The notes: generated by a model from the sequence alone, not told the origin. 64,000 nucleotides of DNA from a virus (IMGVR_UViG_3300042892_003674); one strand, 5' to 3'. Numbered from the stretch's first letter, positions 9,575 through 58,320 are shown. Program-made: numbers and translations.

Positions 9575-11248
9575 ATGAAATACTTAAAATTATATGAAGG
9601 GTTTGAATCTGATAGAGTTAGTGCAATACTTTCATTTCTAAATAAAAAGATAAAGAATGAGTATAACACTCAAGATTTTTTAAAAATATTAAAAAAACTT
9701 GCAGATAAATTTGATTTCCCTCTAAGTACTTTAAGTGATAAAGAAATACAATACTTACCAGTAAATAAAGCGTTGTCTGTTGGTAAAGGTGAAGAAGCAA
9801 TGAATCCATCTGGTACTTACTGTATTAAGTATTGGTTTTCATTGGAAAAAGGATATTTATGTAGTACTGGAACTGGAAATAAGACTATGGATTATAATAA
9901 GTATAATTCTTATGGTTCTTATAGAATGTCAAATGAAGAAGGATTAGATCAATCTCACTTAGCTTACTTAGCTAGAGAATATAAAATAGGTGGTATTATT
10001 ACTCCAGCTAGATTAGGAGATTTAACAACTGGTGATAAAGTAGTAATGGTTTGTGGTGATGATTTTAATGGAGATCCTGCTTATTTAACTTTTGGAGAAA
10101 TATATGGTGATAATAGAAGAAATGGTGATGATGTTGAATATTACTTTTATCAAAATGATCATGAGGGTACTGATCCTGGTTCAACTAGAAATAATATCGT
10201 ATTACCAGATAGATATAATCTTTATGCGGGTAATGCTGCTTATCAATATTCTTGGTCATTAGGAAGTGCAGAAGATCCATCAGATGATCATTGTATGATG
10301 CATAAAGTAATACTAGATGATAAACCTCTAAGGTTTAGAGACGAAGATTTAGATAAGATGAATAAGACAGAAGAATCTGTTTGGGATTTTAATTTACCAT
10401 TAGATGGAACAACTTTGGAAGAATGGAATGGTAGAAAGACTCAAATTTTTAATAGAGTGAGTAAGGAAGCAAATTTTGCAATTGTTCTTTTTCTTGATGA
10501 TATAATAATTAAAAATGTTGATGATACTAAATCTGATATTATGAAAAGAAGAAAGTCACTTAAAAAGGGTGCATTGGCTTTAAAGAAACCAGAAGATATT
10601 AGAAAAGAAAATGTTGAGAGGTATCTAACTACTTTATTTACAAAATTAGGAATAGAAAAAGATAAACAAGAATTTAAAAATCTCAACTCGGTTGTTCTAT
10701 CATCAATTATTGGAGATTATTTTATAATTGCTCTTTATAATAGTAGTGCTTATATTGATAGATTATCAGACTTTATTACATTTTTGTATAGACTAATGTC
10801 AGAAAGTGATAACTCATATAATTTTGAAAAAACTTATGATTTATTTAAAACTATTAAGAAAAGACGTTTAAAACAAACTACTGCTTACTTTAATGGTATT
10901 AAAACTATTAAAGATACTGATAATCAAAATGCAGAAAGGATGTCTGATATAATTGACAGAATAACTAATATAGGTCAAATTTTATCAAATTCAATTAAAA
11001 ATAGAGATATAGAAACTATTGAAGATCTTAAATCAGTACAAGTTAGATTAGCATCATTATATGAATTAGTACAAGATGATATTTTTATACTTTCTAGAAA
11101 TACTAAAAATATTCTTATAAACTTAGATGGTGATACTTCAGCATTAAAACTAATTATGAGTAGATTAAGATATAGTGAAGAAGAGTATAATAGTGATGTT
11201 AAAAGATTAGATAAACTTGAAAAAGTATTTAAAGATCTTTTAAGATAG
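9575..11248 (+). CDS. Hypothetical protein; member of the N-terminal MKYLK..F.E signature family.
   Basis: 557 aa; N-terminus MKYLKLYEGFESDR. Confidence 0.8.
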   Translation: MKYLKLYEGFESDRVSAILSFLNKKIKNEYNTQDFLKILKKLADKFDFPLSTLSDKEIQYLPVNKALSVGKGEEAMNPSGTYCIKYWFSLEKGYLCSTGTGNKTMDYNKYNSYGSYRMSNEEGLDQSHLAYLAREYKIGGIITPARLGDLTTGDKVVMVCGDDFNGDPAYLTFGEIYGDNRRNGDDVEYYFYQNDHEGTDPGSTRNNIVLPDRYNLYAGNAAYQYSWSLGSAEDPSDDHCMMHKVILDDKPLRFRDEDLDKMNKTEESVWDFNLPLDGTTLEEWNGRKTQIFNRVSKEANFAIVLFLDDIIIKNVDDTKSDIMKRRKSLKKGALALKKPEDIRKENVERYLTTLFTKLGIEKDKQEFKNLNSVVLSSIIGDYFIIALYNSSAYIDRLSDFITFLYRLMSESDNSYNFEKTYDLFKTIKKRRLKQTTAYFNGIKTIKDTDNQNAERMSDIIDRITNIGQILSNSIKNRDIETIEDLKSVQVRLASLYELVQDDIFILSRNTKNILINLDGDTSALKLIMSRLRYSEEEYNSDVKRLDKLEKVFKDLLR

Positions 11249-11593
11249 TAAATATAGATCATGTTGTCTTGCTTCTAACTCTGTCAAAAGATAAACACAT
11301 TCTCTTCTTAGATCCTTTAATTTTAAAAAGTCTGCGGTATTTTTAGTTTTATTTAATTGTGAATTAAGATTATCAATTTCAATTGTTATTAAATTCTTCA
11401 TTAAATTCATTTCCTTACTAACCTCTTCTTTTAAATCAAGTGCTAATGATTTAAAATATGGATTTGCCATGATAACACCTTTATAATTATTAGAACTAAA
11501 GTTCTTCATAAGTCTTTTGAGTGTATCAATGGCTTGTTCCTCTGTTGTTGATAGATGTAGCTTATCGAGATATTCTAATAAGGTCAATTTCAT
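11240..11593 (-). CDS. Hypothetical coiled-coil protein.
   Basis: 117 aa. Confidence 0.6.
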   Translation of the reverse strand: MKLTLLEYLDKLHLSTTEEQAIDTLKRLMKNFSSNNYKGVIMANPYFKSLALDLKEEVSKEMNLMKNLITIEIDNLNSQLNKTKNTADFLKLKDLRRECVYLLTELEARQHDLYLLS

Positions 11594-11596
11594 ACA

Positions 11597-12028
11597 TTAT
11601 ATATTTCTTTGCATCTCTCTGGTAAGGTCTCTTTCTTTGATAGTTTCACGCTTATCCCAAGTTTTCTTACCTTTAGCAACTGCTATTTTAATTTTAATTC
11701 TATTATTCTTAACAAACATACCAAGTGGAATTGCGGTTATACCTTTGTCTTCCAATTTTCGTTTAATTCGAGTAATTTCTTTTTTATTTAAAAGAAGTTT
11801 TTTATCACGATTTTCTTCGTGTTTATCTAAAGTATGTGCAGACTTATATGCAGCAACTTTTAGATTTTTTATCCAAACTTCATTATCTTTTATATAAATG
11901 AAGGCATCAACCATGGTAACATTACCCATTCTAACGGACTTTACCTCACTTCCAACCAGTATAATACCACAGTCAAATTCTTCTATAAAAGTATATTCGT
12001 AACGGGCTCTTCTATTTAATGCTATCAT
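11597..12028 (-). CDS. smpB: SsrA-binding protein SmpB.
   Basis: Strong SmpB signature, including RRARYEYTFIEEFDCGIILVGSEVKS and IAVAKGKKTWDKRETIKERD. Confidence 0.9.
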   Translation of the reverse strand: MIALNRRARYEYTFIEEFDCGIILVGSEVKSVRMGNVTMVDAFIYIKDNEVWIKNLKVAAYKSAHTLDKHEENRDKKLLLNKKEITRIKRKLEDKGITAIPLGMFVKNNRIKIKIAVAKGKKTWDKRETIKERDLTREMQRNI

Positions 12029-14925: not shown

Positions 14926-14927
14926 AG

Positions 14928-15457: not shown

Positions 15458-15459
15458 AT

Positions 15460-16423: not shown

Positions 16424-16712
16424 TTAATATATTTTTTAATCTATTTTCTCTTAATTCTTTAACAATAAAACTTTTATCCTTATTAAACTCGTAGTAGTAA
16501 CGAAATTTATAAGCATTTAAAATAGTATGTAGTTGGTCTTTATTTGCCTTATGAAGGTTCTTAATAATACCCTCTTCGACATTTTTGAAAGTAGCTGCTT
16601 CTATATTAGAAGAAAAATTCTTGGCTCTAATTGCAAAGTCTTGTAAATCTAATATGTCTTTTTGAAGATTCTCTAATCTTTCAATAATTACTTCTGATAT
16701 ATCTCCTTTCAT
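16404..16712 (-). CDS. Hypothetical protein.
   Basis: 102 aa. Confidence 0.55.
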   Translation of the reverse strand: MKGDISEVIIERLENLQKDILDLQDFAIRAKNFSSNIEAATFKNVEEGIIKNLHKANKDQLHTILNAYKFRYYYEFNKDKSFIVKELRENRLKNILNGEEEK

Positions 16713-18547
16713 TATGATAATAAGTTTTCTAATTCTTCTACTGTTAAGATTACAACTCCAAGAGAGATAGCTTTCGTTTCTTTACTTGAGCCCGAACCTT
16801 TTGATTTCATTACTAAGTATGTTGTAGTTTTGGATACAGAACCAGCAACTTTACCACCACGTGATTCAATTACTTCTTCTAAATCTTTTCTACGAACACC
16901 AGTAAATACAAATGATTTACCTTCTAAATCTGTGCCAACTTTTACTGTTTCTACTTTCTCTACAATTTTTACAGGAAGATTTCCTACAAATGTAAAGAAA
17001 TTATCGTAATTATCCACAAAAACTTTTGCAGAAATTTCAGCAAATCCTTCAATCTCCATAACTTGGTCAACTGTAGGTTTAGTTGTAAAGTGTTCTAATA
17101 AAGCTAACTTCTTACTACCTAATCCTTTGAACAAGCCTGTGGCGTGTTGAAGTTTAGATAGTTGAACATCAGTAACCGATTTTTGAATTGAGTTATAAAC
17201 AATCTGAGCTTTTCTTTTACCAAATCTGTCAATCTTCTCTAATTGATCTGTAGTAACATTTAAAATGTCTTCGATAGTTTTATAACCAGCATCCCATAAT
17301 TGAGTGATGATACCTTCTGACACATTGTCTGCTTCTAAGATTTCAAAGAACGCAATATTTTGTCTTATCTTTTGATCGTCAGTCTCAGTCAAAGTAACTA
17401 ACTCAATACCATTTTCATTCCATTCGATTTCAGTACCGTCAACAACTGGCATAACAAAGTCAACAGTTTCTAATACTTCAACAATCAATGGAATAACCAT
17501 ACCACTTCTCTTAACTACAACTTTCGCACCAATTCCTAAACCCATATCTTTTACGAATTTAGCATTGTTACCAGTTACGTTAGAAACAGTAACACCGTCT
17601 AATTTAATTGGAGTAATATGTAAAACAGGTTTTAAGAGTCCGTGTTTAGAGATATTCCAAGAAATACCTAATACTGTCGCCTCTGCTTTTTGTTCAAAGG
17701 AGTCGTGTTTAAATGCTCTTGCGTAACAAGGATTGTTAGAAGAAGTCTCACGACCTAGACTATTTTGTAAGTTAAGATCATTTACTTCAAGAATTATACC
17801 ATCGATTTCATAATCAGTAGACCATCTTTTGAATAACTCTACTAAAAAGTCTTCTGTAATATCTTTGGCGATAAATAAATGATAGTTTACTTTAACTTCT
17901 TGACCAGTGTTTAATATATCCAATATGTCTGACTTAGTTCTAAAGTTAAATCCTTCATTTGGTATAGCACCATATTTAATAAATTGTAAATCTTTTAGGG
18001 GTTCAGTTACCTCTTTTGAGTTAAGTAAGCCAGCAACTAAGTTTCTTGGATTGGCAAACTCTGTTGAATATTTATCAATAAAAACTTGTTTAGGCATGAT
18101 AACCTCACCGTAAGTATATGTGAATGGATCACTTTTTAAAGATAAGTGATTTTTTATTAGTTTGTAGTGTTCATCTGACTTCTGGCCGAACTCACCATCG
18201 CCTCTAGTCCAGGTATTTGTATTGATTTCGTCATGACATAAAGAAAGTCCATCATATTTTGGAGTACATACAATTTCGGTATTCGGATTGATACCTTTTA
18301 ATCTTAACCATGTGTGTATGTCTTCAATGGTTTTAATTTTATTCATAGAAGCCATATCGATAGGTAATCTTGACTTTCTTGTTTCATCAAGAACTTCAAT
18401 TCCTACTTTTGAAAAAATTTCATTTTCTGGATCATATGAATATAATAATTCAAGTAATGAATCATACTCTTTATCAGACATAATTTCATTACCAGTTCTA
18501 TAAGCGATATTTGCTTCTTCTAATTTTGTTACTATTCTATCTATCAT
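16712..18547 (-). CDS. ligA: NAD-dependent DNA ligase (LigA).
   Basis: KYDG adenylation motif without the Arg seen in ATP ligases, OB and HhH regions, and a C-terminal BRCT (KSFVFTGVRRKDLEEVIESRGGKV); 611 aa. Confidence 0.85.
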   Translation of the reverse strand: MIDRIVTKLEEANIAYRTGNEIMSDKEYDSLLELLYSYDPENEIFSKVGIEVLDETRKSRLPIDMASMNKIKTIEDIHTWLRLKGINPNTEIVCTPKYDGLSLCHDEINTNTWTRGDGEFGQKSDEHYKLIKNHLSLKSDPFTYTYGEVIMPKQVFIDKYSTEFANPRNLVAGLLNSKEVTEPLKDLQFIKYGAIPNEGFNFRTKSDILDILNTGQEVKVNYHLFIAKDITEDFLVELFKRWSTDYEIDGIILEVNDLNLQNSLGRETSSNNPCYARAFKHDSFEQKAEATVLGISWNISKHGLLKPVLHITPIKLDGVTVSNVTGNNAKFVKDMGLGIGAKVVVKRSGMVIPLIVEVLETVDFVMPVVDGTEIEWNENGIELVTLTETDDQKIRQNIAFFEILEADNVSEGIITQLWDAGYKTIEDILNVTTDQLEKIDRFGKRKAQIVYNSIQKSVTDVQLSKLQHATGLFKGLGSKKLALLEHFTTKPTVDQVMEIEGFAEISAKVFVDNYDNFFTFVGNLPVKIVEKVETVKVGTDLEGKSFVFTGVRRKDLEEVIESRGGKVAGSVSKTTTYLVMKSKGSGSSKETKAISLGVVILTVEELENLLS

Positions 18548-28372: not shown

Positions 28373-28386
28373 TTTAATATATAATC
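28371..28386 (+). promoter_or_regulatory. Upstream motif TATTTAATATATAATC directly after the terminator.
   Basis: 22 nt before the ATG at 28409. Confidence 0.45.
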
Positions 28387-28408: not shown

Positions 28409-28819
28409 ATGATAATTAAAAAATTTGAAAACTTTAGAGGTGGTTTTAGACCAAGAGTAACAGATTTAGGTCCAATTCAAAAAAGAGTTGAAATTAGAAT
28501 TGATCTTGAAAAGGTAGAACATGCGGCTATTCAACAATATAGACATGGTTTTAATAAAGAAAGTGGTAAGATTGATGATGATGATATTAGAGGATTGGTA
28601 GAGTCTGCAATTGAGGAAATAACAATCGCTCTAATGCAAGATCAATTTGATATTATGGATGAATATGGTAATCCAAATAGATTTGTTATTAGAGATAAGA
28701 TAACAAAACTAAATATAGTTTGTGTACTAACACCTGGTGCAAATGAGTTTACACTAACTGTAATAACAGTAATGACAAAGGATGATTTTAAAACTGACAC
28801 ATGGGTTGTAGAAGTATAA
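28409..28819 (+). CDS. Hypothetical protein; N-terminal signature family.
   Basis: 136 aa; MIIKKFENFRG. Confidence 0.7.
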   Translation: MIIKKFENFRGGFRPRVTDLGPIQKRVEIRIDLEKVEHAAIQQYRHGFNKESGKIDDDDIRGLVESAIEEITIALMQDQFDIMDEYGNPNRFVIRDKITKLNIVCVLTPGANEFTLTVITVMTKDDFKTDTWVVEV

Positions 28820-29041: not shown

Positions 29042-30226
29042 TTAATCCCAATCATCATCTTGCCACTCTTCATCATCATCATTTTCACTCCATATTATAC
29101 CCCTTGATCCAGGAAAACTTCTATTACTAATTTTACCAGTTGTTGGATCCCAATTATTCATATTATCAACTGATGGATATTGATCAAATTCACCAGGATT
29201 TATATGTGCAATAAATGTATCACTATAATTCATTTGTAAGTATCCTTTTGCATTACCATACTCAATAAATACATTTCTATCAGAATCTTTACTAGTATAA
29301 ATGGTGTCCATTACTTGTCTACCATCATCTAATGTCCAAAGAAGTGCTCTACCAATAATTTTATTATCAAAGTTTTCTGATTTTAACATAAGTAATTTAA
29401 CGGTTTGTGGATTTTTAATATAAATTTCTAACCAATTAAGATTCCCAACTGCTTGACAAGATCCACCTAATGTACCTTGATGTGGAAACTCATAGTTTCT
29501 TCTATGATACCAGAATCCTAAATCATCACCTTCAACTATCTCAAATCGAGAGAATACATCGTTCATAATTGATAAGACTGCTCTAAACTCATTTACAAAT
29601 GTTTCTATCGCTGCAGCGGTTGGATTGAAGTTATAAGCAGTCAATAGAAGTCTAACTGCTCTACCAATTCTTATTTCTTGCCTACTTTTAGTAAATACTA
29701 TCTTTTGTTTATCATCAACAATAGTTCTTAGTTTTTCTCTATTGTAAACACCTTCACCTGTTGGAAACTTAACATAACACCAAGTTTTACCAGTTTTTTC
29801 TGAAGTTACCTCACTAATTACTTCGCCAATAAGATTATTATTTGGATGAAATACTTCTTCTGTTGTAGGAGTAAACCCAAGTCTTGCAAAGATAGCACCA
29901 TTAGTTTTAACATTATTAGTCAACCAACCACCTCTACGACCAATGTAATTTACATATTCTCTTGTATCTTCAAGTATTTGCTGTGCAACTCTATCAGGAG
30001 TAAATGTCAATATGTTATCATTATCAATTTTTATATCAAAGAAATTAGAAACAACATCTAAGTCTTGATTTTCTATCTCTAATAATTTTTGGGCAATTTC
30101 ATTCTCGGGTATTTTTGTAAGTGCCTTTTTAAACTTATTAGAGTAAATAACATTAGACTCTAATAAAAGTTGTTCTAATATAAGTTTCTCTACAATAAAA
30201 TCTCCATACTTAGTTAAATTTCTCAT
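29042..30226 (-). CDS. Hypothetical protein with a strongly acidic C-terminal tail.
   Basis: 394 aa, ending ENDDDEEWQDDDWD; N-terminus MRNLTKYGDFIVEKL. Confidence 0.8.
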   Translation of the reverse strand: MRNLTKYGDFIVEKLILEQLLLESNVIYSNKFKKALTKIPENEIAQKLLEIENQDLDVVSNFFDIKIDNDNILTFTPDRVAQQILEDTREYVNYIGRRGGWLTNNVKTNGAIFARLGFTPTTEEVFHPNNNLIGEVISEVTSEKTGKTWCYVKFPTGEGVYNREKLRTIVDDKQKIVFTKSRQEIRIGRAVRLLLTAYNFNPTAAAIETFVNEFRAVLSIMNDVFSRFEIVEGDDLGFWYHRRNYEFPHQGTLGGSCQAVGNLNWLEIYIKNPQTVKLLMLKSENFDNKIIGRALLWTLDDGRQVMDTIYTSKDSDRNVFIEYGNAKGYLQMNYSDTFIAHINPGEFDQYPSVDNMNNWDPTTGKISNRSFPGSRGIIWSENDDDEEWQDDDWD

Positions 30227-30973
30227 TTAATATGTTAATATTTTTAAAACAACATCTTCAACAAATTCTTTCATATCTGTTGGATCAATTGTTGCAATCG
30301 TGTCTTTTGATGAATGACAATTAAATAACATTGAGTAATCTAAATATGTATCATCGTCCCATTTGACATTTGTTTTACCTTCTAAAACAGGAGGTAATGG
30401 ATTTATTACTACTGAATCAATTCCATTTCTTCTAAATGTTACTGAATCATTGAAAGGTGTTCTAACTATTGGGCAATCAAAAAGTGTTTTAATATGATTT
30501 GTTAAAGGTCCGGGATAATCTCCAATAAAAAAGTGTTTACCACCTTTACCACTTAATTCTAAGTTAAGTACCCACTCTATATCACCAAACTTACCTTCGT
30601 TTATTAGTTCTGATGCTCTATTAGAGCCTACACCACCAACTTCTTCACCATCTAATAGAATTACATTCATTGTTGGTAAGAGCTTCTTAATCATTATCGC
30701 ATTTATTACTGAAGCACTATTATCATTAGCATTATCTATATTAGGATTATTTACATCATGATGTGCAACAACCATTCTATTTGATGTTCCTTGTAGAATA
30801 AGATTATATCCTGTTACTTCAGCAGTATAGAATTTATCTAATTCATATTTAATACCTTCTGAATCTAAAAGTTCCATTAGAAATTGAACTCTTGGAGGTG
30901 GTGTCTGTGAATTATTATCATAGATAGTTCCTTCATTTCTTACTTTACAGAAGTCGTATATTTTGTTGTACAT
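30227..30973 (-). CDS. Putative M20/M28-like zinc peptidase-fold protein.
   Basis: 248 aa; AHHD...DNAS...DGEE metal-ligand-like pattern, weak. Confidence 0.6.
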   Translation of the reverse strand: MYNKIYDFCKVRNEGTIYDNNSQTPPPRVQFLMELLDSEGIKYELDKFYTAEVTGYNLILQGTSNRMVVAHHDVNNPNIDNANDNSASVINAIMIKKLLPTMNVILLDGEEVGGVGSNRASELINEGKFGDIEWVLNLELSGKGGKHFFIGDYPGPLTNHIKTLFDCPIVRTPFNDSVTFRRNGIDSVVINPLPPVLEGKTNVKWDDDTYLDYSMLFNCHSSKDTIATIDPTDMKEFVEDVVLKILTY

Positions 30974-35321: not shown

Positions 35322-36431
35322 ATGATAATAAATTTAAAGAGTCAAACAGACCTTTCTGGGTTTTATGTAGTTTATGAAGGTTCAACAAACCTAGAAAAAC
35401 CAGGATGGTATGGAATAACACACTTGATGGAACATTTGGTTTGTAAATCATTTGACCATTTACAAGAAGACTTTGATAGAGATGGTATTGATTGGAATGC
35501 TTATACCTCATCAAATGAAATTGTATTCTATTTAACTGGACTAGACGAAAAAGTAAATAAATATAAAAATCAATTTGTTGATTTACTAACTTCTTTTAAA
35601 GTTACTAAAGAAGAGTTTGAGAATGAAAGAAAAATTGTTCTTGAAGAGTATATGGACTGTTTCAATGACCAATCACAATCACATATGTTAAATCTTTCTA
35701 GAAAGCTATTTAATGATTATGATCCAATTGGATTGAAAAAGGATTTAGAGAACCTGAAATTTATGGATTGTCTTAACTTCTTTGAGTTACAATATGCAAA
35801 ACCAACTAAAATTATCAATGTATCTAAAAACAAAGATTATAAAAATAAAGCTGTTGAGTTTCAAGAAAGAAAAATTGTAACTAATTTGAGTTTTGGTAAT
35901 CACGATACAGATTTAGAATTAAACAATGATTTTAAAGATAAAACCTCTATAGTAATCCTTTCACCAGTAATTGAAGAAGATTTTGCTTATGTACACTTTA
36001 TCAATGCGATGTTGTCGTTAGGATTAAAATCTCCACTATATCAAGAAATTAGAGAGAAAAAAGGATTAGTTTATTTTGTTCATTGTTATCAGTCAAGAGT
36101 AAACGATAAAGGATTAAATTCTATCTCAACATTGACTTCAAATAAGAATTTTAATGAGGTTGTAGAAGCAGTTAAAAAAGTAATTACGAATCCGGATAAG
36201 TTTCTAACTAAAGAAAGATTTAACCTTATTAAAGATTATTATGGTGTTAGAAAACAAAAAGATGAAATCAATAGATATGCGTCAGTAAATCAATGGATTA
36301 ACCCAGAAGGTTGGTCAGTGTATGATATATTAGAAGATGTTACTTTGAAAAAGATTAAAGAAGTTTATACTAAGTATTATGACTTTGATAAGTTCTACAT
36401 TTCTTCTGATAAGAAAGAATTTAAGAAATAA
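35322..36431 (+). CDS. M16 (insulinase/pitrilysin)-family peptidase-like protein.
   Basis: 369 aa; inverted zinc motif HLMEHL (HxxEH) near the N-terminus. Confidence 0.7.
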   Translation: MIINLKSQTDLSGFYVVYEGSTNLEKPGWYGITHLMEHLVCKSFDHLQEDFDRDGIDWNAYTSSNEIVFYLTGLDEKVNKYKNQFVDLLTSFKVTKEEFENERKIVLEEYMDCFNDQSQSHMLNLSRKLFNDYDPIGLKKDLENLKFMDCLNFFELQYAKPTKIINVSKNKDYKNKAVEFQERKIVTNLSFGNHDTDLELNNDFKDKTSIVILSPVIEEDFAYVHFINAMLSLGLKSPLYQEIREKKGLVYFVHCYQSRVNDKGLNSISTLTSNKNFNEVVEAVKKVITNPDKFLTKERFNLIKDYYGVRKQKDEINRYASVNQWINPEGWSVYDILEDVTLKKIKEVYTKYYDFDKFYISSDKKEFKK

Positions 36432-36470: not shown

Positions 36471-36490
36471 TTTTTAATATATAATAAAAA
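36471..36490 (+). promoter_or_regulatory. Upstream motif TTTTTAATATATAATAAAAA directly after the terminator.
   Basis: 14 nt before the ATG at 36504. Confidence 0.45.
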
Positions 36491-36503: not shown

Positions 36504-37241
36504 ATGAGATACATTAAAAAATTCAATGAGAGCTTCTTAGACAGATTAGAAGCTGCTGTTAAAGGTAAATCTGATAAGGGTAAACTTATTGGAGAAATGT
36601 TAAAAAAACAAAATATTACAGAACAGGGATTTGCTTATACATTCAGATATATGGGTGGGGATCTTACTGATGAAACAAAAAGTCATCCAATTTCATACTT
36701 GGTAAATTATAAACCAAATGAAGGTAAATTAAAAGTTGAAGGTGGTAAAGTTTTACTAACTGATGAAATGTTTAATGATAAAAAAGTTGTAAATGTTATT
36801 CCAATGTTGGATAAAGAAATTGCGGCAGAAGGAAAGACAGAATTAGAAGAACATGGTCGTATTTGGTCAAGTGCGGTAATTAAATTTGATTATAAGTTTG
36901 ACTTAGCTGCAGAGAATCCAACTCTAACATTCTCAAACGCTTTACTTTTTGATATAGAAAAAGGAACTTGGGTAAAAAATGAAGATATAAAAATAGATAC
37001 GGTTGAAATACTTGATGGTGAAGTAAATCCAGAAACTGAAAAAGCACTTGCTGACTCATTAGCAGGTACTGTTTGGAATCAAGAATTGGTTACTACTTAT
37101 AAAACATTTATTGATGAATGTAATAAAAGAAAAGATATTGTAGATATTATTTCAAAACATCATTCGGGTGTTGAAAAACCAGAGACAACACAAGAACCAG
37201 CAGTTGCAGAAAGTGTCATTACAAAATTTAATAGATTTTAA
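36504..37241 (+). CDS. Hypothetical protein; N-terminal signature family.
   Basis: 245 aa; MRYIKKFNESFLDRLE. Confidence 0.8.
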   Translation: MRYIKKFNESFLDRLEAAVKGKSDKGKLIGEMLKKQNITEQGFAYTFRYMGGDLTDETKSHPISYLVNYKPNEGKLKVEGGKVLLTDEMFNDKKVVNVIPMLDKEIAAEGKTELEEHGRIWSSAVIKFDYKFDLAAENPTLTFSNALLFDIEKGTWVKNEDIKIDTVEILDGEVNPETEKALADSLAGTVWNQELVTTYKTFIDECNKRKDIVDIISKHHSGVEKPETTQEPAVAESVITKFNRF

Positions 37242-37835: not shown

Positions 37836-38240
37836 TTAATTATTTTTATAAAAATCGACTTTATATCGATTTGCAATTTCTTCAGCTTTATTTAAGAAAG
37901 GTTCCGTTACATAAAATACCCATTTAAAACCAGGATACTGTTGATTTATGTCAATTACTGACATATAACTACCAAATATTTCCTTACCATCTACATCTTC
38001 TTTTTTACCAATTAAATCACCATTAGTGTCAACAAACTTTGGAATACTTGCAAATCCTTGTTTGTACATTAGATCATCCATTTCTTTACGAATTTTATCT
38101 CTTGTTTGCCAACTAGTTTTTATGAAATCAACTACTACACTTGGATAGATAGTTTTTTCTTCACCTCTACTATTATTAAATGTTATTGGTGATACAATGA
38201 AATCATCATCTAAACTCTCATTAAATTTTCTTATACGCAT
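37836..38240 (-). CDS. Hypothetical protein; N-terminal signature family.
   Basis: 134 aa; MRIRKFNESLDDDF. Confidence 0.7.
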   Translation of the reverse strand: MRIRKFNESLDDDFIVSPITFNNSRGEEKTIYPSVVVDFIKTSWQTRDKIRKEMDDLMYKQGFASIPKFVDTNGDLIGKKEDVDGKEIFGSYMSVIDINQQYPGFKWVFYVTEPFLNKAEEIANRYKVDFYKNN

Positions 38241-38258
38241 AAACTATATATTAAATAT
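38241..38258 (-). promoter_or_regulatory. Upstream motif TTTAATATATAGTTTATG, the exact 17-mer.
   Basis: Minus strand reads ATATTTAATATATAGTTT followed by the ATG at 38240. Confidence 0.5.
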
Positions 38259-44951: not shown

Positions 44952-46601
44952 ATGACACCAATAATATTAGAATGGTCAAACGCATTTGACGTAGATAATA
45001 ATATAACCGGATATGAGTTATCGTATAAAACAACTGGATCTTGGATATCCTTACCATTTATAACATCCTCACAAACAAGTGGGAGTTATAGTTTCACACC
45101 AACACAACAAGTTACTCATTCATTTAGAATAAGAGTTCGTGATTCATTTTCTGCTGTTAGTTCATATAAATATTTTAATTATGTAATTAGTGCAGAATAT
45201 CAAATATCAAGTGTTTATTATAATAATACTTTCGATGAAAATAATGACGTACGTGATACATGTCAGATTGTATCAGATCCAACAAATACTTACACAGATA
45301 TTTATCTTAGTAGTGCACCACCTGCTGTTGGAGTTATTGTTTATACAGATCAACAACAAACAAACGATTATTTTGGACATAATGAATATTGGATAATTAA
45401 ATCACCATCTGGATTACACTATTCATGTTGGATAGATGATTTTGGCGTTATCCAGGCGGTATATTTATGTGGTGCAAATAGTGCACAGATTTCGGCAAAT
45501 GCACCAAACTGGTTAGGTCGTTTGGCTGCATCACAAACCTGTGGATTAGCACTTACTGGTACTGTATATTGGGATTCACAGTATTCTTTTGCGGTTGGTA
45601 CAATATTATATACAGATCCATTATTCACGACACCATTAAACGGTCAATCAAGATTCTTTCGTATGGAATATACTAATTCACTTGGGTTGACTTTAACAAA
45701 GATTGTAAAAGTTGGTAATCTAACAAACCCATCGGTTATAGTTTCTATGGATAATGTATCTACTGTGTGTTCTGCACTTTTTATGGCATATAGAACTACA
45801 GGAACGAATTTCAATACTAGTTTGGGTAACTCAATCGATGGAACTTCTTTATGTCAATTATCCCCAAATACAAAATGTTATATAAGGGTAGCAGATCCAA
45901 GTATTATTAGTACTGGTGATATAGTATACACTGTTAGTGGAACGAACGCGGGACCAACCTTTAGTGGAGGTAACCAATATTATAATATGTATATAGCTTT
46001 TGCTGCTAATGGACCAAATACTAATGCAATTTGTCAGGTTGATGATTATGGTGTAATAACAGTGCAAGGATACTGTAGTGGTAGTTCTGCTGGTTGTTGT
46101 TTATTACCCGGTACAAATATAACCTTATTTGATGGTTCTACTATTAGTATAGAAGATATAATTGGTGGTGAATCATTACTAACTTATAATATTGAAGAAT
46201 CAACTTTTGAAGAAGGCTTAGTTACCAATATATTTACTCCAATACATAATGATATTGTAAAACTTGTAATCGGAGATAATACAATAGATTGTACATCAAC
46301 ACATCCTTTCTGGTCAGTAAATAAGAAAGAATGGGTTTCTTTAAATCCTAAAGAAACTATGCTTACTATGAATATAAATATCGAACATTTAGAAATTGGT
46401 GATATTTTATTAAATGAGAGAAATGAAGAAGTTATATTAGATGATATTATACAAATAGATAGTGAAGATATAGTAACTTATGATATTTCAGTAGAACCAA
46501 ATCACACATATTATGCTAATAGTATATTAGTTCATAATAAAACTGATGAAAATGGGAATGACATAATATTTAACCCTATTAATAATTTTACTAACCCTTA
46601 A
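44952..46601 (+). CDS. FN3-like structural protein with a C-terminal Hint (intein-like/BIL) domain.
   Basis: 549 aa. N-terminal fibronectin-III-like fold (ILEWSNAFDVDNNITGYELSYKTTGSW). C-terminal Hint domain, described in the next feature. Confidence 0.9.
   Translation: MTPIILEWSNAFDVDNNITGYELSYKTTGSWISLPFITSSQTSGSYSFTPTQQVTHSFRIRVRDSFSAVSSYKYFNYVISAEYQISSVYYNNTFDENNDVRDTCQIVSDPTNTYTDIYLSSAPPAVGVIVYTDQQQTNDYFGHNEYWIIKSPSGLHYSCWIDDFGVIQAVYLCGANSAQISANAPNWLGRLAASQTCGLALTGTVYWDSQYSFAVGTILYTDPLFTTPLNGQSRFFRMEYTNSLGLTLTKIVKVGNLTNPSVIVSMDNVSTVCSALFMAYRTTGTNFNTSLGNSIDGTSLCQLSPNTKCYIRVADPSIISTGDIVYTVSGTNAGPTFSGGNQYYNMYIAFAANGPNTNAICQVDDYGVITVQGYCSGSSAGCCLLPGTNITLFDGSTISIEDIIGGESLLTYNIEESTFEEGLVTNIFTPIHNDIVKLVIGDNTIDCTSTHPFWSVNKKEWVSLNPKETMLTMNINIEHLEIGDILLNERNEEVILDDIIQIDSEDIVTYDISVEPNHTYYANSILVHNKTDENGNDIIFNPINNFTNP
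46098..46538 (+). other. Hint domain (mini-intein / bacterial intein-like, no endonuclease).
   Basis: Block A CLLPGTNITLFDGSTISIEDI, block B TSTHPFW (TxxH), C-terminal blocks VTYDISVEPNHTYYANSILVHN. The residue after HN is Lys, so canonical splicing is unlikely and only cleavage is expected. Confidence 0.75.
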
Positions 46602-51247: not shown

Positions 51248-51772
51248 ATGAATTTAAAATACGGAAAAATAGATGTAGATGTAAAGTGGAAATCACCAAG
51301 TGTAGAGTCATTTTTTTCTTGGCGTGATGATTTTTTCAAAATACCCAATGCAGAAAAATTTGATGTTTACTTATTAGGAAGTTTTGCAAATAAATTAGTA
51401 GATAATACTGGTACACCCAGTGATATTGATATTATTTTAACAGGTCATCACAATATTTATGATATTGAAAATGTAATATATCAGGGTACAAAACTAGGAA
51501 TAGAAAAGTATAGTATATTTTTTGATATTCAGTGGCATAGTGAGATAGTATTTTATAATAATATGGAAGATATTCAAAAGAAGAAATCAAATCAAGTATA
51601 TATGCATGGTAATAAATGGATAGTAAATGATGAGGTAAAAAAAGATTATAAAAATTCCGTAAAAGTATGTGAAAGTTTATATAAACTTAATTGTTATTGG
51701 CCTAGTGTTAAACAAACAGAGAGAATTAAAAATGGATATGTTTATAAAGATCCATTTTTAATTAACTACTAG
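51248..51772 (+). CDS. Minimal nucleotidyltransferase-fold protein.
   Basis: 174 aa; GSFANKLVDNTGTPSDIDIIL (GS...DxD motif of the Pol-beta NTase superfamily). Confidence 0.65.
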   Translation: MNLKYGKIDVDVKWKSPSVESFFSWRDDFFKIPNAEKFDVYLLGSFANKLVDNTGTPSDIDIILTGHHNIYDIENVIYQGTKLGIEKYSIFFDIQWHSEIVFYNNMEDIQKKKSNQVYMHGNKWIVNDEVKKDYKNSVKVCESLYKLNCYWPSVKQTERIKNGYVYKDPFLINY

Positions 51773-52469
51773 TAATTAGTAAGTAACCTACTTTACCAGG
51801 TTCATTTTTAGAACAGTGACCCATTGCATCAATACGAGTCTCTTCACCAGTTAGTTTTATTTTAGAAAGTTTTTGTTTGCCTAAAATACGTTTTTCACCA
51901 TTACAAGTTTTACAAGGTGTTAAACCTACTTTACCTTTACCAAAACAAAAAGAACATTCTTGACCCATATATTGTCCAGTTCCCTCACAGAAGTCACATC
52001 CATCATCAGAGTCAAATATCTTTAAGATATTACCATCATTATCTTTAATGATGATTTTAGATGAAAGATCTTTACCAGTACCATCACAAGGTTTACAACG
52101 AACCCATCGTTCATATTCTAAAGTACCATCAAAAGTATGATCAACTTTAATATGAATGTTAAAAACCTCATTCTTTTTAAAATTTTCTAATTTATCTTTT
52201 GTATCATCATGTGAATAATCAAAATTTGTTTCAAATAATTCAAAGTATTCATTATAACAGTTTCCAAACTTACTTTTTTTATCATAGTCTTCTCTTTCCT
52301 CACCACACAAGACATCATAAGCTTCGGTCATCTCACCAAAGATAATAGCATCACCTCCTTTGTCAGGATGGTTCTCAAATGAGAGTTTATAATACGCTTT
52401 CTTAATTTCTTTTTCAGTTGATGTATTTGCTACACCAAGTAAAGAATAATAATTTTTATTTAAGTTCAT
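51762..52469 (-). CDS. DnaJ-like protein: J-domain plus CxxCxGxG zinc finger.
   Basis: 235 aa; N-terminal J-domain with HPD (YYKLSFENHPDKGGD); CKPCDGTG, CDFCEGTG, CSFCFGKG, CKTCNGE. Confidence 0.8.
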   Translation of the reverse strand: MNLNKNYYSLLGVANTSTEKEIKKAYYKLSFENHPDKGGDAIIFGEMTEAYDVLCGEEREDYDKKSKFGNCYNEYFELFETNFDYSHDDTKDKLENFKKNEVFNIHIKVDHTFDGTLEYERWVRCKPCDGTGKDLSSKIIIKDNDGNILKIFDSDDGCDFCEGTGQYMGQECSFCFGKGKVGLTPCKTCNGEKRILGKQKLSKIKLTGEETRIDAMGHCSKNEPGKVGYLLITSS

Positions 52470-52801: not shown

Positions 52802-54499
52802 TTAGTTATCATATTCTACTTCTTCAATAGAAGAAAAAACTTCCTTATTTATCTTAATAATTCTATCAAACATTTCTTGGTTCAAAATTGCGTGATGAAC
52901 CACAAATATATTGATGTTATAATCATTTGCAAACGATTTAAGAAGCAATAATATAGAATCTATACCTTCGATGTCAATTGATGAAAAAACCTCGTCTAAG
53001 AACAATATGTTGATGTGTTTCTTAGTTCTGATTAGTTTCAAATAAGCAATTAAGATCGCTATATTTACTTTTTTAGACTCTCCAGTACTTAATGAATCAT
53101 GTTCAACAACAGAACCTAATGTTTTAATTTCAGAACTAAATGTCTCATCTAATTTTACATCAAATGGTAATCCCATTTTCTTAATATTTTCTGCAATAAA
53201 ATGATTTATTGGTTTAATAATACCTGCTATAATTGATTTCTTAGCACCATCTTCACTAAATACTCTAGTTAGTTCTTTATAGAATAATTCCTTCTCTTTA
53301 CAGATAGTTATATGTTCTTGACTAACATTTTTTTTAGAATCTAATTCACCAATAGTATTTTGAAATTCTTGTACATTTACTGATTCACCAGTTTCTTTTG
53401 ATTTCTTTGTATTAAGAGAATCAATTTGAGCCTTATAATTTCTAAGAAGGTAGTTTAAATCATTAAATGAATTTGTTGTACTATCTGCAATAGTTTTTAA
53501 CTTTATTTGTTTTGATTTAATTGATGTTATATTGTCATTTATTTCTGATAATACTGATTCAAAACTTTCTTTCTTTTCAACTAATGTTGTTCTAAGACTA
53601 ATAAAGTGATCTGAATTAAAATCTGTACTACAAGTAGGACATTTACCAGAATCATAAAGACTTATTTCTTTTTGAACATTTCTTACTTCATTTTGAGTTG
53701 TACTCAATTGTCTTTTTTCAACATCTAATTCATCAGTAAGTATTTTATCTTTTTCTTTAATCTTATCTACTTTTTCTTTAAGAAGTTTATAATCTTCTTT
53801 TTTAGAATTCATTTCCTCAGTAAGAGTTTCGATTTCTTGTTGTATATTCTCTTTAGCTTTTTCGATTGCTTTTTCGATTGATTTTTGAATTGATCCAATA
53901 GAATCCTCTAATGTTCTAATTTCAGAATCTAAAGAAGCCATTCTAAGTTTATTATTCTTATTTATATCTTTAAGAATACCATTTAAAATATTGATAACTT
54001 CAAGATTAAATAATTTATCTAAAAGTAATTGTTTCTCTTCATTTGTTAAAGATATAAAGTTTTTAAAGTCATTGATTGACATTGAGATAAATGATTTGAA
54101 TGTTTCTATATCTAAACCGATATACTTTTCAATTTTATCATCAATATTCGCTTTACCTGCTCTTTCATTTGGAATTCCATTTTCAACTAATTCTAATACT
54201 GATGGAGAAATACCTCTTTTGATTTCTACATCAGTTCCATTTGAAATAAATTTTATACGATTTAATAGTTCACCGTTTATACGGTTTGGCAACGAAGATA
54301 GTTTGTGCCATTTTTTTGCTTTCCCGGATTTTACTTTTCCGTAAATAGCATATTCAAAAGATTCAAGTAATGAAGATTTACCATTACCATTATTTCCTAC
54401 AAGAAGAACTAATTCTCCTTTTTCTGTGTTTAATTTTAATACTTGTTCATTATTTCCAAAGGATTTGTAGCCTCTGATTCCTATTTCACTAATTAGCAT
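52802..54499 (-). CDS. SbcC/Rad50-like SMC-family ATPase with a zinc hook.
   Basis: 565 aa; Walker A GNNGNGKSS, long coiled coil with a CPTC hook, C-terminal signature/Walker B region (SLSTGESKK ... ILFLDEVFSSID). Confidence 0.8.
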   Translation of the reverse strand: MLISEIGIRGYKSFGNNEQVLKLNTEKGELVLLVGNNGNGKSSLLESFEYAIYGKVKSGKAKKWHKLSSLPNRINGELLNRIKFISNGTDVEIKRGISPSVLELVENGIPNERAGKANIDDKIEKYIGLDIETFKSFISMSINDFKNFISLTNEEKQLLLDKLFNLEVINILNGILKDINKNNKLRMASLDSEIRTLEDSIGSIQKSIEKAIEKAKENIQQEIETLTEEMNSKKEDYKLLKEKVDKIKEKDKILTDELDVEKRQLSTTQNEVRNVQKEISLYDSGKCPTCSTDFNSDHFISLRTTLVEKKESFESVLSEINDNITSIKSKQIKLKTIADSTTNSFNDLNYLLRNYKAQIDSLNTKKSKETGESVNVQEFQNTIGELDSKKNVSQEHITICKEKELFYKELTRVFSEDGAKKSIIAGIIKPINHFIAENIKKMGLPFDVKLDETFSSEIKTLGSVVEHDSLSTGESKKVNIAILIAYLKLIRTKKHINILFLDEVFSSIDIEGIDSILLLLKSFANDYNINIFVVHHAILNQEMFDRIIKINKEVFSSIEEVEYDN

Positions 54500-55335: not shown

Positions 55336-55368
55336 ACTTATATTTTATTTTTTATATCTTATTTATTA

Positions 55369-55701: not shown

Positions 55702-55712
55702 AGAAGTATATA

Positions 55713-56618: not shown

Positions 56619-56654
56619 AATAAAAATTTGTTTATTATAGAAAGATTTATTATT

Positions 56655-56942
56655 TTAGTTTAGAGTTTTGTATTCTTCTTTAAGAGCATCTTCTAAATGT
56701 GCTTCTTGTTCTTCATCTAATTGTTTATTAAACTCTTTTTTATACCAAGAGATTAGTTTATGTACAATGATTTCTTCTGCCTCACCATTACTGATTGCTT
56801 TATAATCACCTTCTTCAATCCATTCTTTTACCTCATCAGCAAGCATTTCAGAAACAGTCTCTTCTGTGAATTGTTCTTTAATCTTCACAACTGCATGATG
56901 TTTATCAAAAGTATTCTCGTTATATTTTTTTAAATATCTCAT
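56655..56942 (-). CDS. Hypothetical protein; N-terminal signature family.
   Basis: 95 aa; MRYLKKYNENTFDKHH. Confidence 0.6.
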   Translation of the reverse strand: MRYLKKYNENTFDKHHAVVKIKEQFTEETVSEMLADEVKEWIEEGDYKAISNGEAEEIIVHKLISWYKKEFNKQLDEEQEAHLEDALKEEYKTLN

Positions 56943-57367
56943 ATCTCATTATTATATTTTACATAAATGCTTATTCCCGAAATCTCTTCTATAGTATGTG
57001 ATTTTAATTCCTCTATTGTAAATGGAGTACTTTCATAATTAAGATCCCATACTAATATAATTTGTTCATCATCCAATCTATCTTCTAGATTATAAGGTCC
57101 AAAAGCAGGAACTAATTTATATTTTTTATTTAAAATCTCTATAAATGGAATTAAATGATCTTTAACATCAATCCATCTAATATTTTGATGATTATCTGTA
57201 TGAATCTCTATTGCTACACAACTATCCTCGTAAGTATATACAGAAAGTTTAATATTATCATCATCTAATAAGTAAGCTAAATACATTTCACTAACTTCTT
57301 TTAGTTCATTTATAAAGTCTTCAATATAAAGATTCTCAAATAATTTATAAAACTTCAAATATTTCAT
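56939..57367 (-). CDS. Hypothetical protein; N-terminal signature family.
   Basis: 142 aa; MKYLKFYKLFENLYIEDF. Confidence 0.65.
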   Translation of the reverse strand: MKYLKFYKLFENLYIEDFINELKEVSEMYLAYLLDDDNIKLSVYTYEDSCVAIEIHTDNHQNIRWIDVKDHLIPFIEILNKKYKLVPAFGPYNLEDRLDDEQIILVWDLNYESTPFTIEELKSHTIEEISGISIYVKYNNEI

Positions 57368-58320
57368 TACTTTAACTTAATATGTACATATAACCAAAAT
57401 GAGTGTGGTTTAACACTAATCAAAACTTTTTGACCCCATTTTTTAGTCATAACCCAAGAAGTGAAATTGTTTTTAATATTCAAAAGTTCACCTTCATCTA
57501 ATTTACCATTATCCCATTTACCAATACCATAGTATCCAAATGAAATTACTTTATCAGAAATTGTTGGTTTTGATTCTTTTTCAAAATATCCAGGTTTAAA
57601 ATCTTTCATATCAGTTTTAATCTTACCAAGAAGTAACATATCGGTATGTGATATATTTACAATTTCTTTTTTCAAAGAAGCTGCTGATTTAGATTCAATA
57701 GTTACTAACCATCTTACAACTGAAGGAGTTAGTTTGAATTGTCCAATTGGATTCAATTTATCATAAGTAACACCATATTCAAATGTTCCATCACATTTAA
57801 TACCAAAGTAAAGACCACATTCATTTTTACCATAATCAATCATATCTAAATATCTTGTCAATGATTTGAATCTACTAAAGACAGATTTAACATCTGTTGA
57901 AGATAACTCTGGATAATAATAAAATAATAAGAAGTGAGAAGGACATTTTTCAATATTTGAAGTTTTGTCTTTTTGACCTAATGCAGTCAATGATTTTAGA
58001 AATGAATTAAAGATTGATTTACCTGCAATTGTAATTTCTGCAGACTCATTAATTTCAGTTGAGACTAAAACCTCTGGATCTTTCTCCTCGATTCCATTTT
58101 GTAGATAAGTATCAATTTGTGATTTAATATCATCTTGTTCAGATTGTTCTAACATATTTATAGCATTAGACAGTCTTATAGTAGAAGGGATATCCCCTAA
58201 AAATCGATTTACTATGTTTTTAACATATTCATCATCATACAAAGACTCAACCCACTCTCCAAGTGAATTGAAGTCTTGTAATTCAGATTCTTTAATAAAC
58301 TCTAAATACTTTTTTATCAT
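57367..58320 (-). CDS. Hypothetical protein; N-terminal signature family.
   Basis: 317 aa; MIKKYLEFIKESELQDF. Confidence 0.75.
   Translation of the reverse strand: MIKKYLEFIKESELQDFNSLGEWVESLYDDEYVKNIVNRFLGDIPSTIRLSNAINMLEQSEQDDIKSQIDTYLQNGIEEKDPEVLVSTEINESAEITIAGKSIFNSFLKSLTALGQKDKTSNIEKCPSHFLLFYYYPELSSTDVKSVFSRFKSLTRYLDMIDYGKNECGLYFGIKCDGTFEYGVTYDKLNPIGQFKLTPSVVRWLVTIESKSAASLKKEIVNISHTDMLLLGKIKTDMKDFKPGYFEKESKPTISDKVISFGYYGIGKWDNGKLDEGELLNIKNNFTSWVMTKKWGQKVLISVKPHSFWLYVHIKLK

Follow-up and report, generated by a model that had tools for sequence, protein, structure and literature searches.

Eight genes of the window begin with a shared peptide

The DNA examined here is a 64,000 nt stretch of the viral genome IMGVR_UViG_3300042892_003674 (hereafter the window; 26–34% GC, with no Shine-Dalgarno sequences upstream of its genes). 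Eight of its 54 proteins begin with a variant of a short peptide, most often of the form MKYLKKFNE, which we call the tag and which may be a relative of the capsid-targeting sequence (CTS) of phage T4. The tagged genes are named by the coordinate of their start codon (9575, 28409, 30226, 36504, 38240, 56942, 57367 and 58320; Table 1). An initial annotation of the window had listed these eight N-termini, and we found all of them, each starting at the first ATG past an in-frame stop located 0–22 codons upstream. That annotation spoke of a seven-member protein family whose bodies, of 95–557 amino acids (aa), are unrelated. The common N-terminal signature was confirmed, but the word family does not apply: all-versus-all BLASTP gave no similarity beyond the first 10–30 residues, and the signature is better described as a tag on eight unrelated proteins. 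Scans of the eight against Pfam and PHROG gave no matches, and four have no homolog even in LR745206.1, the complete relative described below.

The tag occurs in three recurring registers, namely the majority form MKYLKKFNE[SN], a second subtype M(I/L)KKYLEFIKE[SN] represented by MIKKYLEFIKES in gene 58320, and a third, MKYLK.Y..FE[SN], in genes 9575 and 57367. The start of 30226, which the initial annotation had called a looser match, is a degenerate tag of the MIKKYLEFIKES type, because its ortholog in LR745206.1 (45% identical) starts MIKKYLDFIKES. Other orthologs in the same genome start MKYLRKYNES (gene 56942) and MRYISLYEAFES (gene 9575, the bodies being only 28% identical). The tag of 36504 is kept in 66 homologs and that of 58320 across the homologs examined (120 listed of 782 found). 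By inspection, the tags lack the hydrophobic core of about 7–15 residues that in Sec, Tat and lipoprotein signal peptides comes after a basic N-region, the KYLKKFNE-like residues being followed by polar or acidic ones. We also noted that the 36504 protein ends (37209–37238) in ...VITKFNRF and its homologs in ...RIKKFK, an echo of the N-terminal IKKFNE.

Within the window the signature is confined to gene starts. The pattern [KR]K[FY][NE][EN] occurs four times at protein residue 4–5 and never in 19,163 internal positions, and a relaxed regular expression applied to every ATG in all six frames returned exactly the eight tag sites and no other. A position-specific scoring matrix (PSSM), trained mostly on other genomes, matched 6 of 54 gene starts versus 3 of 846 other ATGs (Fisher p = 2.6e-6). 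A NadR-like protein starting MDKIYKNSL, with matches to AAA_28 and Citrate_ly_lig, proved to be a false positive of a loose regular expression, in place of which the calibrated PSSM was used.

Tagging on a genome scale in relatives

The window is collinear, in inverted orientation, with 290–336 kb of LR745206.1, with proteins 28–80% identical. This is one of the 634–735-kb Mahaphage genomes, for which Bacteroidetes hosts were predicted (PMC7162821). At a PSSM threshold giving 0.2% false positives on internal Met positions, 120 of the 936 open reading frames (ORFs) of this 634,780 bp complete genome are tagged (12.8%, a proportion similar to that in the window), scattered from 4 kb to 634 kb; ORFs of relatives are crude longest-ORF calls, and other Mahaphages were sampled at 50–100 kb each. 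In all fetched sequence, the 465 tagged proteins formed 236 clusters when grouped by their bodies, of which 163 have a single member. Tagged genes often stand in tandem runs, as in the window (58320 > 57367 > 56942) and at 451–458 kb and 624–626 kb of LR745206.1.

Closer relatives include a 177-kb IMG/VR contig that is 84–90% identical in nucleotide sequence to window positions 51.7–62.2 kb, and a 415-kb ENA contig that encodes a 97% identical 58320 protein in the same gene order. A tblastn search with one widespread tagged family matched only LR745206.1 and LR756502.1. The closest isolates by capsid protein are PTm1, PTm5, PAU, pT24, MaF61 and MA9V, at 24–29% identity; in the GenBank annotation of PTm1 no proteins are marked as detected by mass spectrometry. 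A literature search for MKYLKKFNE and its variants returned no paper with these strings, and in the literature on Mahaphages and capsid targeting we found no report of such a tag or of a Mahaphage CTS.

The tag is conserved as a peptide and is not due to chance

As its own refuting alternative, the initial annotation had offered AT-driven codon bias, that is, chance resemblance among gene starts in a genome of 29% GC. Both the base composition and the AT-rich codons that encode the tag residues favour such an explanation; the distribution of the motif refutes it, and we give chance a negligible probability. No internal position and no non-start ATG in any frame of the window matches, as described above. 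When written as a degenerate DNA pattern, M-[KR]-Y-[LIF]-K-K-[FY]-N-E was observed twice in the window with none expected from dinucleotide-preserving shuffles. The exact motif has 105 matches at 98 loci in IMG/VR, all at 23–35% GC and followed by diverse ORFs, and 98 of the 105 are ORF starts, with no other in-frame ATG separating them from the stop codon upstream. In 596 Gb of bacterial and archaeal genomes there were only ten matches, in three metagenome-assembled genomes (MAGs); nine lie on AT-rich, phage-like contigs that look mis-binned, and the tenth (L102, 43% GC) lies inside a long open frame. A 50-kb sample of Lak-A1 (25% GC, Prevotella host) had the tag in none of 79 ORFs, and one of PTm1 in about none of 56; both phages are equally AT-rich and infect the same host phylum.

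The contigs behind the prokaryote matches deserve separate mention. JALOAD01 contigs L099, L101, L103 and L105 (from a 'Candidatus Muiribacterium halophilum' MAG) and L100 and L104 (from a 'Clavibacter' MAG) are AT-rich (25–37% GC) and hold multi-copy tagged paralogs of 246–308 aa that start MKYLKKFNENINSSEIDSICEKYNI... They are very likely mis-binned contigs of huge phages.

Codon usage identifies the level at which conservation acts. In a set of 174 distinct tagged starts, K5 was encoded by AAA 128 times and by AAG 33 times, Y3 by TAT 80 and TAC 60 times, F7 by TTT 114 and TTC 23 times, and E9 by GAA 105 and GAG 37 times; with a background use of AT-rich codons of 81–87%, the synonymous codons of the tag are as varied as those of the gene bodies, or more so. 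Amino acid replacements within the tag are conservative (K/R, Y/H/W, L/I, F/Y, N/E and E/D). Since synonymous codons are free and replacements conservative, the selected object is the peptide. Given the variation at synonymous sites, what is conserved cannot be a DNA repeat, an overlapping promoter or an RNA-level start signal.

Possible relation to the capsid-targeting sequence of T4

The internal proteins (Ips) of T4 share only the ten-residue CTS MKTYQEFIAE, which takes them, or any protein fused to it, into the scaffolding core before being removed by cleavage (PMC8442874; PMC3012670). Ip genes of T-even phages were found through the CTS, and three of them encode injected inhibitors of type IV restriction enzymes; there are three Ips in T4, and at least ten have been reported across T-even phages (PMC12373910). 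They are highly basic proteins in T4 (PMC8442874). The tag MIKKYLEFIKES of 58320 reads K-x-Y-x-E-F-I-x-E, the same core as K-T-Y-Q-E-F-I-A-E of T4. Among the 999 proteins of LR745206.1 and the window (217,000 residues), the strict core K.Y.EF[ILV].E occurs twice, both times at an N-terminus, and a relaxed core occurs 11 times N-terminally and 5 times internally. Mullaney and Black reportedly showed in 1996 that the T4 sequence is enough to bring a foreign protein into the head.

Searching IMG/VR for M-K-x-Y-x-E-F-I-x-E, with or without one extra residue, gave more than 200 loci that form a continuous series from T-even contigs of about 170 kb and 37–42% GC (MKTYQEFIAE, MKTYKEFITE) to AT-rich contigs of huge phages (MKKYLEFIKE, MLKKYKEFIKES). 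Intermediate forms such as MKYIKEYSEFVNE and MKYIKDYNDFINE were found in LR756500, one of the deeper Mahaphages, where 14 of 53 ORFs are tagged. The type of tag is mostly kept within orthologous families and is occasionally swapped: one homolog of the 58320 family starts MKYLKLYENFISG, and one body cluster mixes MKNFKEFNES with MSKTYREFITE. On the strength of this continuum, the intermediates, the rare swaps within families and the co-occurrence of the tag types, we read MKYLKKFNE as a probable derived variant of a T4-like tag. The 735-kb Mahaphage LR756501.1, sampled at 300–350 kb and 520–570 kb, has almost no MKYLKKFNE-type tags; many of its proteins start M..(K)[FY]..[FY][IL]NE[AG], for example MKKYIEFINEE, MISYNNFINEA, MITNFSTYINEA and ..F.NFINEA. 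These forms are nearer to the T4 CTS, which suggests that the majority tag of the window's clade is the derived one.

A T4-type head module with a protease-scaffold fusion

LR745206.1 encodes homologs of T4 head and tail proteins, including the large terminase subunit TerL (E = 7e-44 against gp17), the portal (1e-20 against gp20), the sheath and the major capsid protein, which matches the Pfam family Gp23 at 1.8e-26. The initial annotation had suggested searching for a prohead protease, and one of the T4 gp21 type was found in close relatives, beside this gp23-type capsid protein. The gene directly upstream of the capsid gene of LR745206.1 (198546–200669; loci L109/L110) encodes a 707-aa protein, the first 190 residues of which align with gp21 (hhalign probability 77%, E = 2e-5 over 146 columns, using a 22-sequence profile). 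The aligned motifs are GE(L/F)(N/D)HP and VSSR(G/A), which we take to hold the catalytic His85 and Ser140 of gp21. A search of PDB sequences with the profile of the protease domain gave nothing useful.

The remainder of this protein consists of 11–14 tandem repeats of 14 residues, NIAYSEY[IL]AENLDK (9–14 when the IMG/VR loci below are included), followed by a poly-acidic tail. From this arrangement, the 707-aa protein is predicted to be a scaffold fused to a prohead protease. The fusion is kept together with the capsid protein in at least 55 distinct IMG/VR loci (L315–L394, at about 1700–3920); seven of those contigs carry exact tags of the majority type, and one of the seven is the 177-kb window-like contig. 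A second protein with scaffold-type repeats, three in number, lies at 460435 of LR745206.1.

The core of the scaffold repeat, Y.E[YF][IL].E[NH], resembles both the T4 CTS and the MIKKYLEFIKES tag. Y-x-E-[YF]-[IL]-x-E was counted 11 times in the scaffold, 9 times at N-termini and 18 times elsewhere in 197,000 residues. From this resemblance it could be speculated that tags dock by mimicking the repeat.

Candidate cleavage context and predicted structure

Cleavage after Glu is common to the prohead proteases of T4, phiKZ, 201phi2-1 and SPN3US (PMC5694885). Among 478 distinct tags, 98% have a Glu at residue 7–14, with F, L, Y or I at P3, and the residue that follows the tag Glu is Ser or Asn in 50% of cases, versus 11.6% after Glu elsewhere in the same proteins. 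The information content of the tag falls to background past residue 10–12, as reported over the same 12 positions on which the PSSM was chosen. With ^ marking the candidate cut, the eight tags of the window end GFE^S, KFE^N, FNE^S, FNE^S, YNE^N, LFE^N, IKE^S and IVE^K.

Similar contexts occur in the head proteins. Across 55 distinct capsid sequences the N-terminal propeptide ends in an invariant ..EFH(S/Q)INE^NAY.. (S-I-N-E^N), of which the Glu is the last before a variable, Glu-free linker and the mature domain; T4 gp23 is presumably cut in the corresponding region. Every scaffold repeat contains Y[LI]AE^N, present in 9–13 copies per scaffold, a candidate cleavage context like that of the tags. 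The hydrophobic-x-Glu context of the tag Glu would suit a protease of the gp21 type.

Alignment-based AlphaFold2 models of 58320 and 36504 have confident bodies, with a mean predicted local distance difference test (pLDDT) score of 81 and 77, respectively. The tag residues (1–14 in 58320 and 1–10 in 36504) are unstructured in these models, with a pLDDT of about 31, below 50, and no secondary structure, and yet the tag columns are among the most conserved of both families. In 36504 the first helix begins at residue 11, and residues 222–245 are also unstructured. A modelled segment that is disordered and conserved at once is what a linear docking or cleavage motif may be expected to look like. 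Foldseek searches of the PDB with the modelled bodies of 58320 and 36504 returned no significant match.

A promoter-like motif upstream of tagged and head genes

The window has 15 copies of the motif TTTAATATATA[GCA], nearly all of them a short distance upstream of a gene, with starts (larger coordinate if on the minus strand) at 5529, 6599, 9562, 15046, 18621, 26215, 26790, 28375, 29037, 30987, 36475, 38253, 46628, 55715 and 58333. Five copies precede tagged genes (Table 1), and others precede the large structural-looking genes 18652 and 46641, among others. In LR745206.1 the core AATATATA stands ahead of the genes for portal, terminase and protease-scaffold and of a gene adjoining the sheath gene. 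Because of the head genes that it precedes, the motif is probably a late-type promoter of this clade. Of the 120 tagged genes of LR745206.1, 54 have it in the 60 nt before the gene, versus 124 of the 816 untagged genes (odds ratio 4.6, p = 1.4e-12), from which co-expression of tagged genes with head genes is plausible. The spacer between motif and ATG in that genome falls into two classes, 4–6 nt and 17–29 nt, and the short class implies leaderless mRNAs. Tags are enriched in both classes, the tagged fraction being 40% in the short-spacer and 22% in the long-spacer class (p = 0.014).

The tagged proteins

A Pfam domain was found in none of the eight tagged proteins of the window, versus about 20 of the 24 untagged proteins that were run, which include tyrosyl-tRNA synthetase, YqeY, SmpB, an NAD-dependent ligase, Sir2, DnaJ, a Rad50-like protein, M16 and M28 peptidases, an S1-domain protein, glycosyltransferases and an SPFH protein. 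About a dozen of the 120 tagged proteins of LR745206.1 have domains, among them two NUDIX proteins, an M15 peptidase, an NFACT-R protein, a zinc protease and one protein that combines a 2H-phosphoesterase/Acb1-like with an RNase T domain. A few of 147 tagged IMG/VR proteins carry LRR, SET, GNAT, NUDIX or DUF5661 domains or zinc ribbons. Of the domains in these two sets, LRR, SET, GNAT, NUDIX, Acb1/2H-phosphoesterase and M15 peptidase are effector-like. By analogy with the T-even Ips, most of the tagged proteins would represent an accessory, host-directed repertoire. The capsid, portal, sheath, TerL and protease proteins have no tag.

Coordinates of features and other genes of the window

Table 1. 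Tags, tagged genes, neighbouring peptidase genes and promoter-like motifs in the window
Feature	Position	Strand	Remarks
Tag MKYLKLYEGFES (MKYLK.Y..FE^S register)	9575..9610	+	557-aa ORF 9575-11248; PSSM 20.4
Tagged protein, 557 aa, no known domain	9575..11248	+	TAATATATA upstream at 9562
Tag MIIKKFENF (one residue shorter)	28409..28435	+	136-aa ORF 28409-28819; PSSM 11.5
Tagged protein, 136 aa, no known domain, no LR745206.1 homolog	28409..28819	+	TAATATATA at 28375
Degenerate tag MRNLTKYGDFIVEK	30185..30226	-	394-aa ORF 29042-30226; PSSM 4.2, below threshold
Degenerate-tag protein, 394 aa, very acidic C-terminus	29042..30226	-	
Tag MRYIKKFNES (canonical majority type)	36504..36533	+	245-aa ORF 36504-37241
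Tagged protein, 245 aa, confident AlphaFold2 body, no PDB fold match	36504..37241	+	
Tag MRIRKFNES	38214..38240	-	134-aa ORF 37836-38240; PSSM 12.1
Tagged protein, 134 aa, no known domain, no LR745206.1 homolog	37836..38240	-	
Tag MRYLKKYNEN	56913..56942	-	95-aa acidic ORF 56655-56942
Tagged protein, 95 aa	56655..56942	-	
Tag MKYLKFYKLFEN	57332..57367	-	142-aa ORF 56939-57367; PSSM 20.2
Tagged protein, 142 aa, no LR745206.1 homolog	56939..57367	-	
Tag MIKKYLEFIKES, T4-CTS-like subtype (K.Y.EFI.E)	58285..58320	-	317-aa ORF 57367-58320
Clade-wide conserved tagged protein, 317 aa, confident AlphaFold2 body, no PDB fold match	57367..58320	-	
Peptidase_M16 (insulinase-like), intact HLMEH	35322..36431	+	directly upstream of 36504; 77% identical to LR745206.1 ortholog
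Peptidase_M28 aminopeptidase	30227..30973	-	adjoins 30226
Promoter-like TAATATATA	9562..9570	+	4 nt before ATG of 9575
Promoter-like TAATATATA	28375..28383	+	upstream of 28409
Promoter-like TAATATATA	36475..36483	+	upstream of 36504
Promoter-like TAATATATA	38245..38253	-	TAATATATAG ends 4 nt before ATG of 38240
Promoter-like TAATATATA	58325..58333	-	heads tagged run 58320 > 57367 > 56942

A translation-related cluster on the minus strand (5112–6402, 7661–8914, 8914–9318 and 11597–12028) consists of 12 tRNA genes, with the Ser, His, Phe, Trp and Lys species duplicated, and the genes for tyrosyl-tRNA synthetase, a YqeY-like protein and SmpB, the partner of transfer-messenger RNA. Further untagged host-like proteins, all on the minus strand, are an SPFH/Band 7 membrane protein of 631 aa (31050–32945), Sir2 (38752–39471), a zinc-finger DnaJ (51762–52469), a Rad50/SbcC-like ATPase (52802–54499) and an NAD-dependent DNA ligase (16712–18547). 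Assignment of 31050–32945 as FtsH was rejected on the Pfam match to the SPFH/Band 7 domain. A 549-aa protein at 44952–46601 (+) starts with an fn3-like segment and has a HINT/intein-splicing-like domain at its C-terminus (Intein_splicing E = 8e-9, PT-HINT); it has no homolog in LR745206.1, and the genes on either side are very large and look structural. The gene at 58349–62176 (-), immediately upstream of the three consecutive tagged genes, encodes a 1275-aa enzyme with GT1, GT9 (heptosyltransferase-like) and methyltransferase domains, of which the 415-kb relative has a 1078-aa version.

Interpretation and alternative explanations

The explanation that we favour, and judge to be evenly poised between right and wrong, is that the tag is a portable, lineage-specific peptide address and a greatly expanded relative of the T4 CTS. 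Tagged proteins would be made together with the head proteins, and the unstructured tag of 9–12 residues, with its basic and aromatic start and its terminal Glu, would dock on the scaffolding core of the procapsid, that core being the acidic, repeat-rich part of the fusion protein. Its other part, the gp21-type prohead protease, would then cut after the terminal Glu (...F-N-E^S, ...F-I-K-E^S), leaving new N-termini predicted to be SFLDRLEAAVK in 36504 and SELQDFNSLGEWVESLYDDEYVK in 58320. Retained in the head, the cargo would reach the host along with the DNA, an arsenal made in advance from proteins that are mostly novel and evolve fast. In its fullest form, the proposal is one of cargo addressing at the scale of the proteome in one Mahaphage subclade, comprising more than 100 proteins per genome (about 13% of genes and more than 200 families), mimicry of the scaffold repeat, clipping after Glu, and a head that serves as an injection device for effectors and anti-defence proteins. 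We advance this version only tentatively and think it somewhat more probably wrong than right. The majority MKYLKKFNE tag may also have been re-purposed from a CTS for another destination.

A number of observations count against a role in capsid targeting. The head module was seen in relatives and lies outside the 64-kb window, the match of the protease to Pfam Peptidase_S77 (E = 0.005) is below the gathering score and weak alone, and the label late for the promoter-like motif derives only from the genes that it precedes. No cultured relative carries the tag, the 50-kb sample of PTm1 having essentially none. The likeness to the T4 CTS that the initial annotation proposed is partly supported by the core of the 58320 subtype, the terminal Glu, the position of the tag outside the fold and the head module; it does not extend to the majority MKYLKKFNE form, the PSSM of which scores the T4 CTS at -9.0, that is, does not recognise it. 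The cargo of T4 is few, small and highly basic, whereas about 120 tagged proteins per genome are 20–40 times the number of T-even Ips, their median length is 168 aa, and their bodies are acidic (a net charge per residue of -0.056 versus -0.014, p = 2e-11). The tagged proteins of LR745206.1 also include a CCA-adding enzyme, a methyltransferase and a primase-like protein, for which there is no obvious need of packaging.

Several of these points would be better explained if the tag were a genuine peptide address or regulatory signal with a role other than capsid entry, directing proteins to another phage-made compartment, a membrane complex or a chaperone such as the encoded DnaJ, or serving as a presequence or degron, handled by the M16 or M28 peptidase, that times some 120 accessory proteins. 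All the evidence for a peptide-level, lineage-specific, unstructured N-terminal signal fits this equally, the majority subtype does not score as a T4 CTS, and a cytoplasmic destination would suit the tagging of 13% of ORFs, the acidity and the CCA-adding and primase-like enzymes better than would a head filled with DNA. The mitochondrial presequence peptidases belong to the M16 family, whose enzymes remove or degrade organellar presequences. An intact and highly conserved M16 gene lies directly upstream of 36504, and is the only nucleotide-level (megablast) match of window positions 28–40 kb to LR745206.1; the M28 aminopeptidase gene adjoins 30226. It is speculative that either enzyme processes or degrades tags, the M16 link being one of adjacency only. 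We know of no such non-capsid destination in these phages, and an explanation of this kind leaves unaccounted for the near-identity of MIKKYLEFIKES to the T4 CTS core, the Glu followed by Ser or Asn as at the candidate cleavage sites of capsid and scaffold, and the enrichment of the head-gene promoter motif. We consider it unlikely, though to be taken seriously.

Improbable, in our view, is an expression device, in which the tag would be a start cassette raising initiation or early elongation on leaderless mRNAs or those without Shine-Dalgarno sequences in Bacteroidetes hosts. The missing Shine-Dalgarno sequences, a motif 4–6 nt from many ATGs, the higher tagged fraction in the short-spacer class and the AT-rich codons of the tag are in keeping with this, and Lys-Tyr after the start codon has been reported to favour expression. 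It is hard to reconcile with free synonymous sites at which TAC and GAG exceed background use, with the 55% of tagged genes that have no promoter within 60 nt, or with the absence of tags from the most abundant proteins (capsid, portal, sheath, TerL and protease). Nor would a ramp effect predict conservation through F7-N8-E9 with a sharp end, or a motif essentially missing from 596 Gb of cellular genomes, AT-rich and Bacteroidetes genomes included, and from the Lak-A1 and PTm1 samples. We think it very improbable indeed that the tag is a functionless historical remnant of one ancestral gene, or of a mobile cassette of promoter plus first codons, downstream of which bodies diverged or were replaced. 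Such an origin would be consistent with the tandem runs, the promoter motif often immediately upstream and the multi-copy paralog families, but amino acids are near-invariant despite randomised synonymous sites, the tag persists while bodies diverge into 236 clusters and in orthologs only 28% identical, and, again, the promoter cassette is missing from 55% of tagged genes.

If the tag is a capsid signal, a simple sequence rule would single out candidates for injection, about 120 in each genome and thousands in metagenomes as a whole, and so provide a catalogue of host-takeover and anti-defence effectors in uncultured, mostly unannotated huge phages, with a partial explanation for the abundance of ORFans in them. 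A mechanism that serves three proteins in T4 would scale to cargo the size of a proteome, viral metaproteomes could be searched for predicted cleavage sites, for example as semi-tryptic peptides starting after ..NE, and a portable tag would be available for loading proteins into the heads of Bacteroidetes phages. If it is not, an N-terminal address that is specific to one lineage and carried by 13% of a viral proteome would still be a targeting or regulatory system worth study.

Comparison with known systems

Short portable terminal peptides also address cargo into the shells of encapsulins, which have the HK97 fold, and of bacterial microcompartments. Those peptides differ from the tag in being usually C-terminal in encapsulins, in remaining uncleaved, in having another consensus and in belonging to cellular organelles. 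Mitochondrial and plastid presequences resemble the tag as basic, amphipathic, unstructured N-terminal extensions of hundreds of unrelated proteins, and the window encodes an M16 peptidase with HxxEH. They are unlike it in being 15–50 residues long and of no fixed sequence, and here there is no known import machinery or compartment.

Among phages, P1 offers a precedent in DarB, an anti-defence protein whose N-terminal signal is enough to bring it, or a reporter, into the head and from there into the host; the signal is contained in residues 1–30 of this one 250-kDa protein, stepwise loading requires other Dar proteins, and P1 has no separate scaffold (PMC9024508). The giant myoviruses phiKZ, 201phi2-1 and SPN3US have about 50 head proteins and a bolus of ejection proteins, with propeptides removed after Glu by a gp21-related protease (PMC5694885). 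Their cleavage motif is A/S/G-x-E, whereas P3 is F, L, Y or I here, and their propeptides are mostly longer than 100 residues and without a short consensus, with eight proteins processed in SPN3US, whereas here the element is a conserved 9–12-mer.

In function, the closest parallel is T4 itself. In both systems a peptide of about ten residues stands at the N-terminus of otherwise unrelated, fast-evolving, non-essential proteins and has a terminal Glu in a hydrophobic-x-E context, the site of cleavage by the gp21 protease in T4; head genes of gp20, gp21 and gp23 type are present, here in relatives; one subtype, MIKKYLEFIKES, has the core K.Y.EFI.E; and the Ip genes of T-even phages, too, were discovered through their shared signal. 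The system described here is known from sequences alone and differs in its majority consensus, MKYLKKFNE, in having about 120 tagged proteins per genome versus three in T4, in acidic rather than basic cargo, and in a scaffold of 14-residue repeats that forms one protein with the protease. What is new is the distinct consensus, a more than 20-fold larger number of tagged proteins and a protease-scaffold fusion with tag-like repeats.

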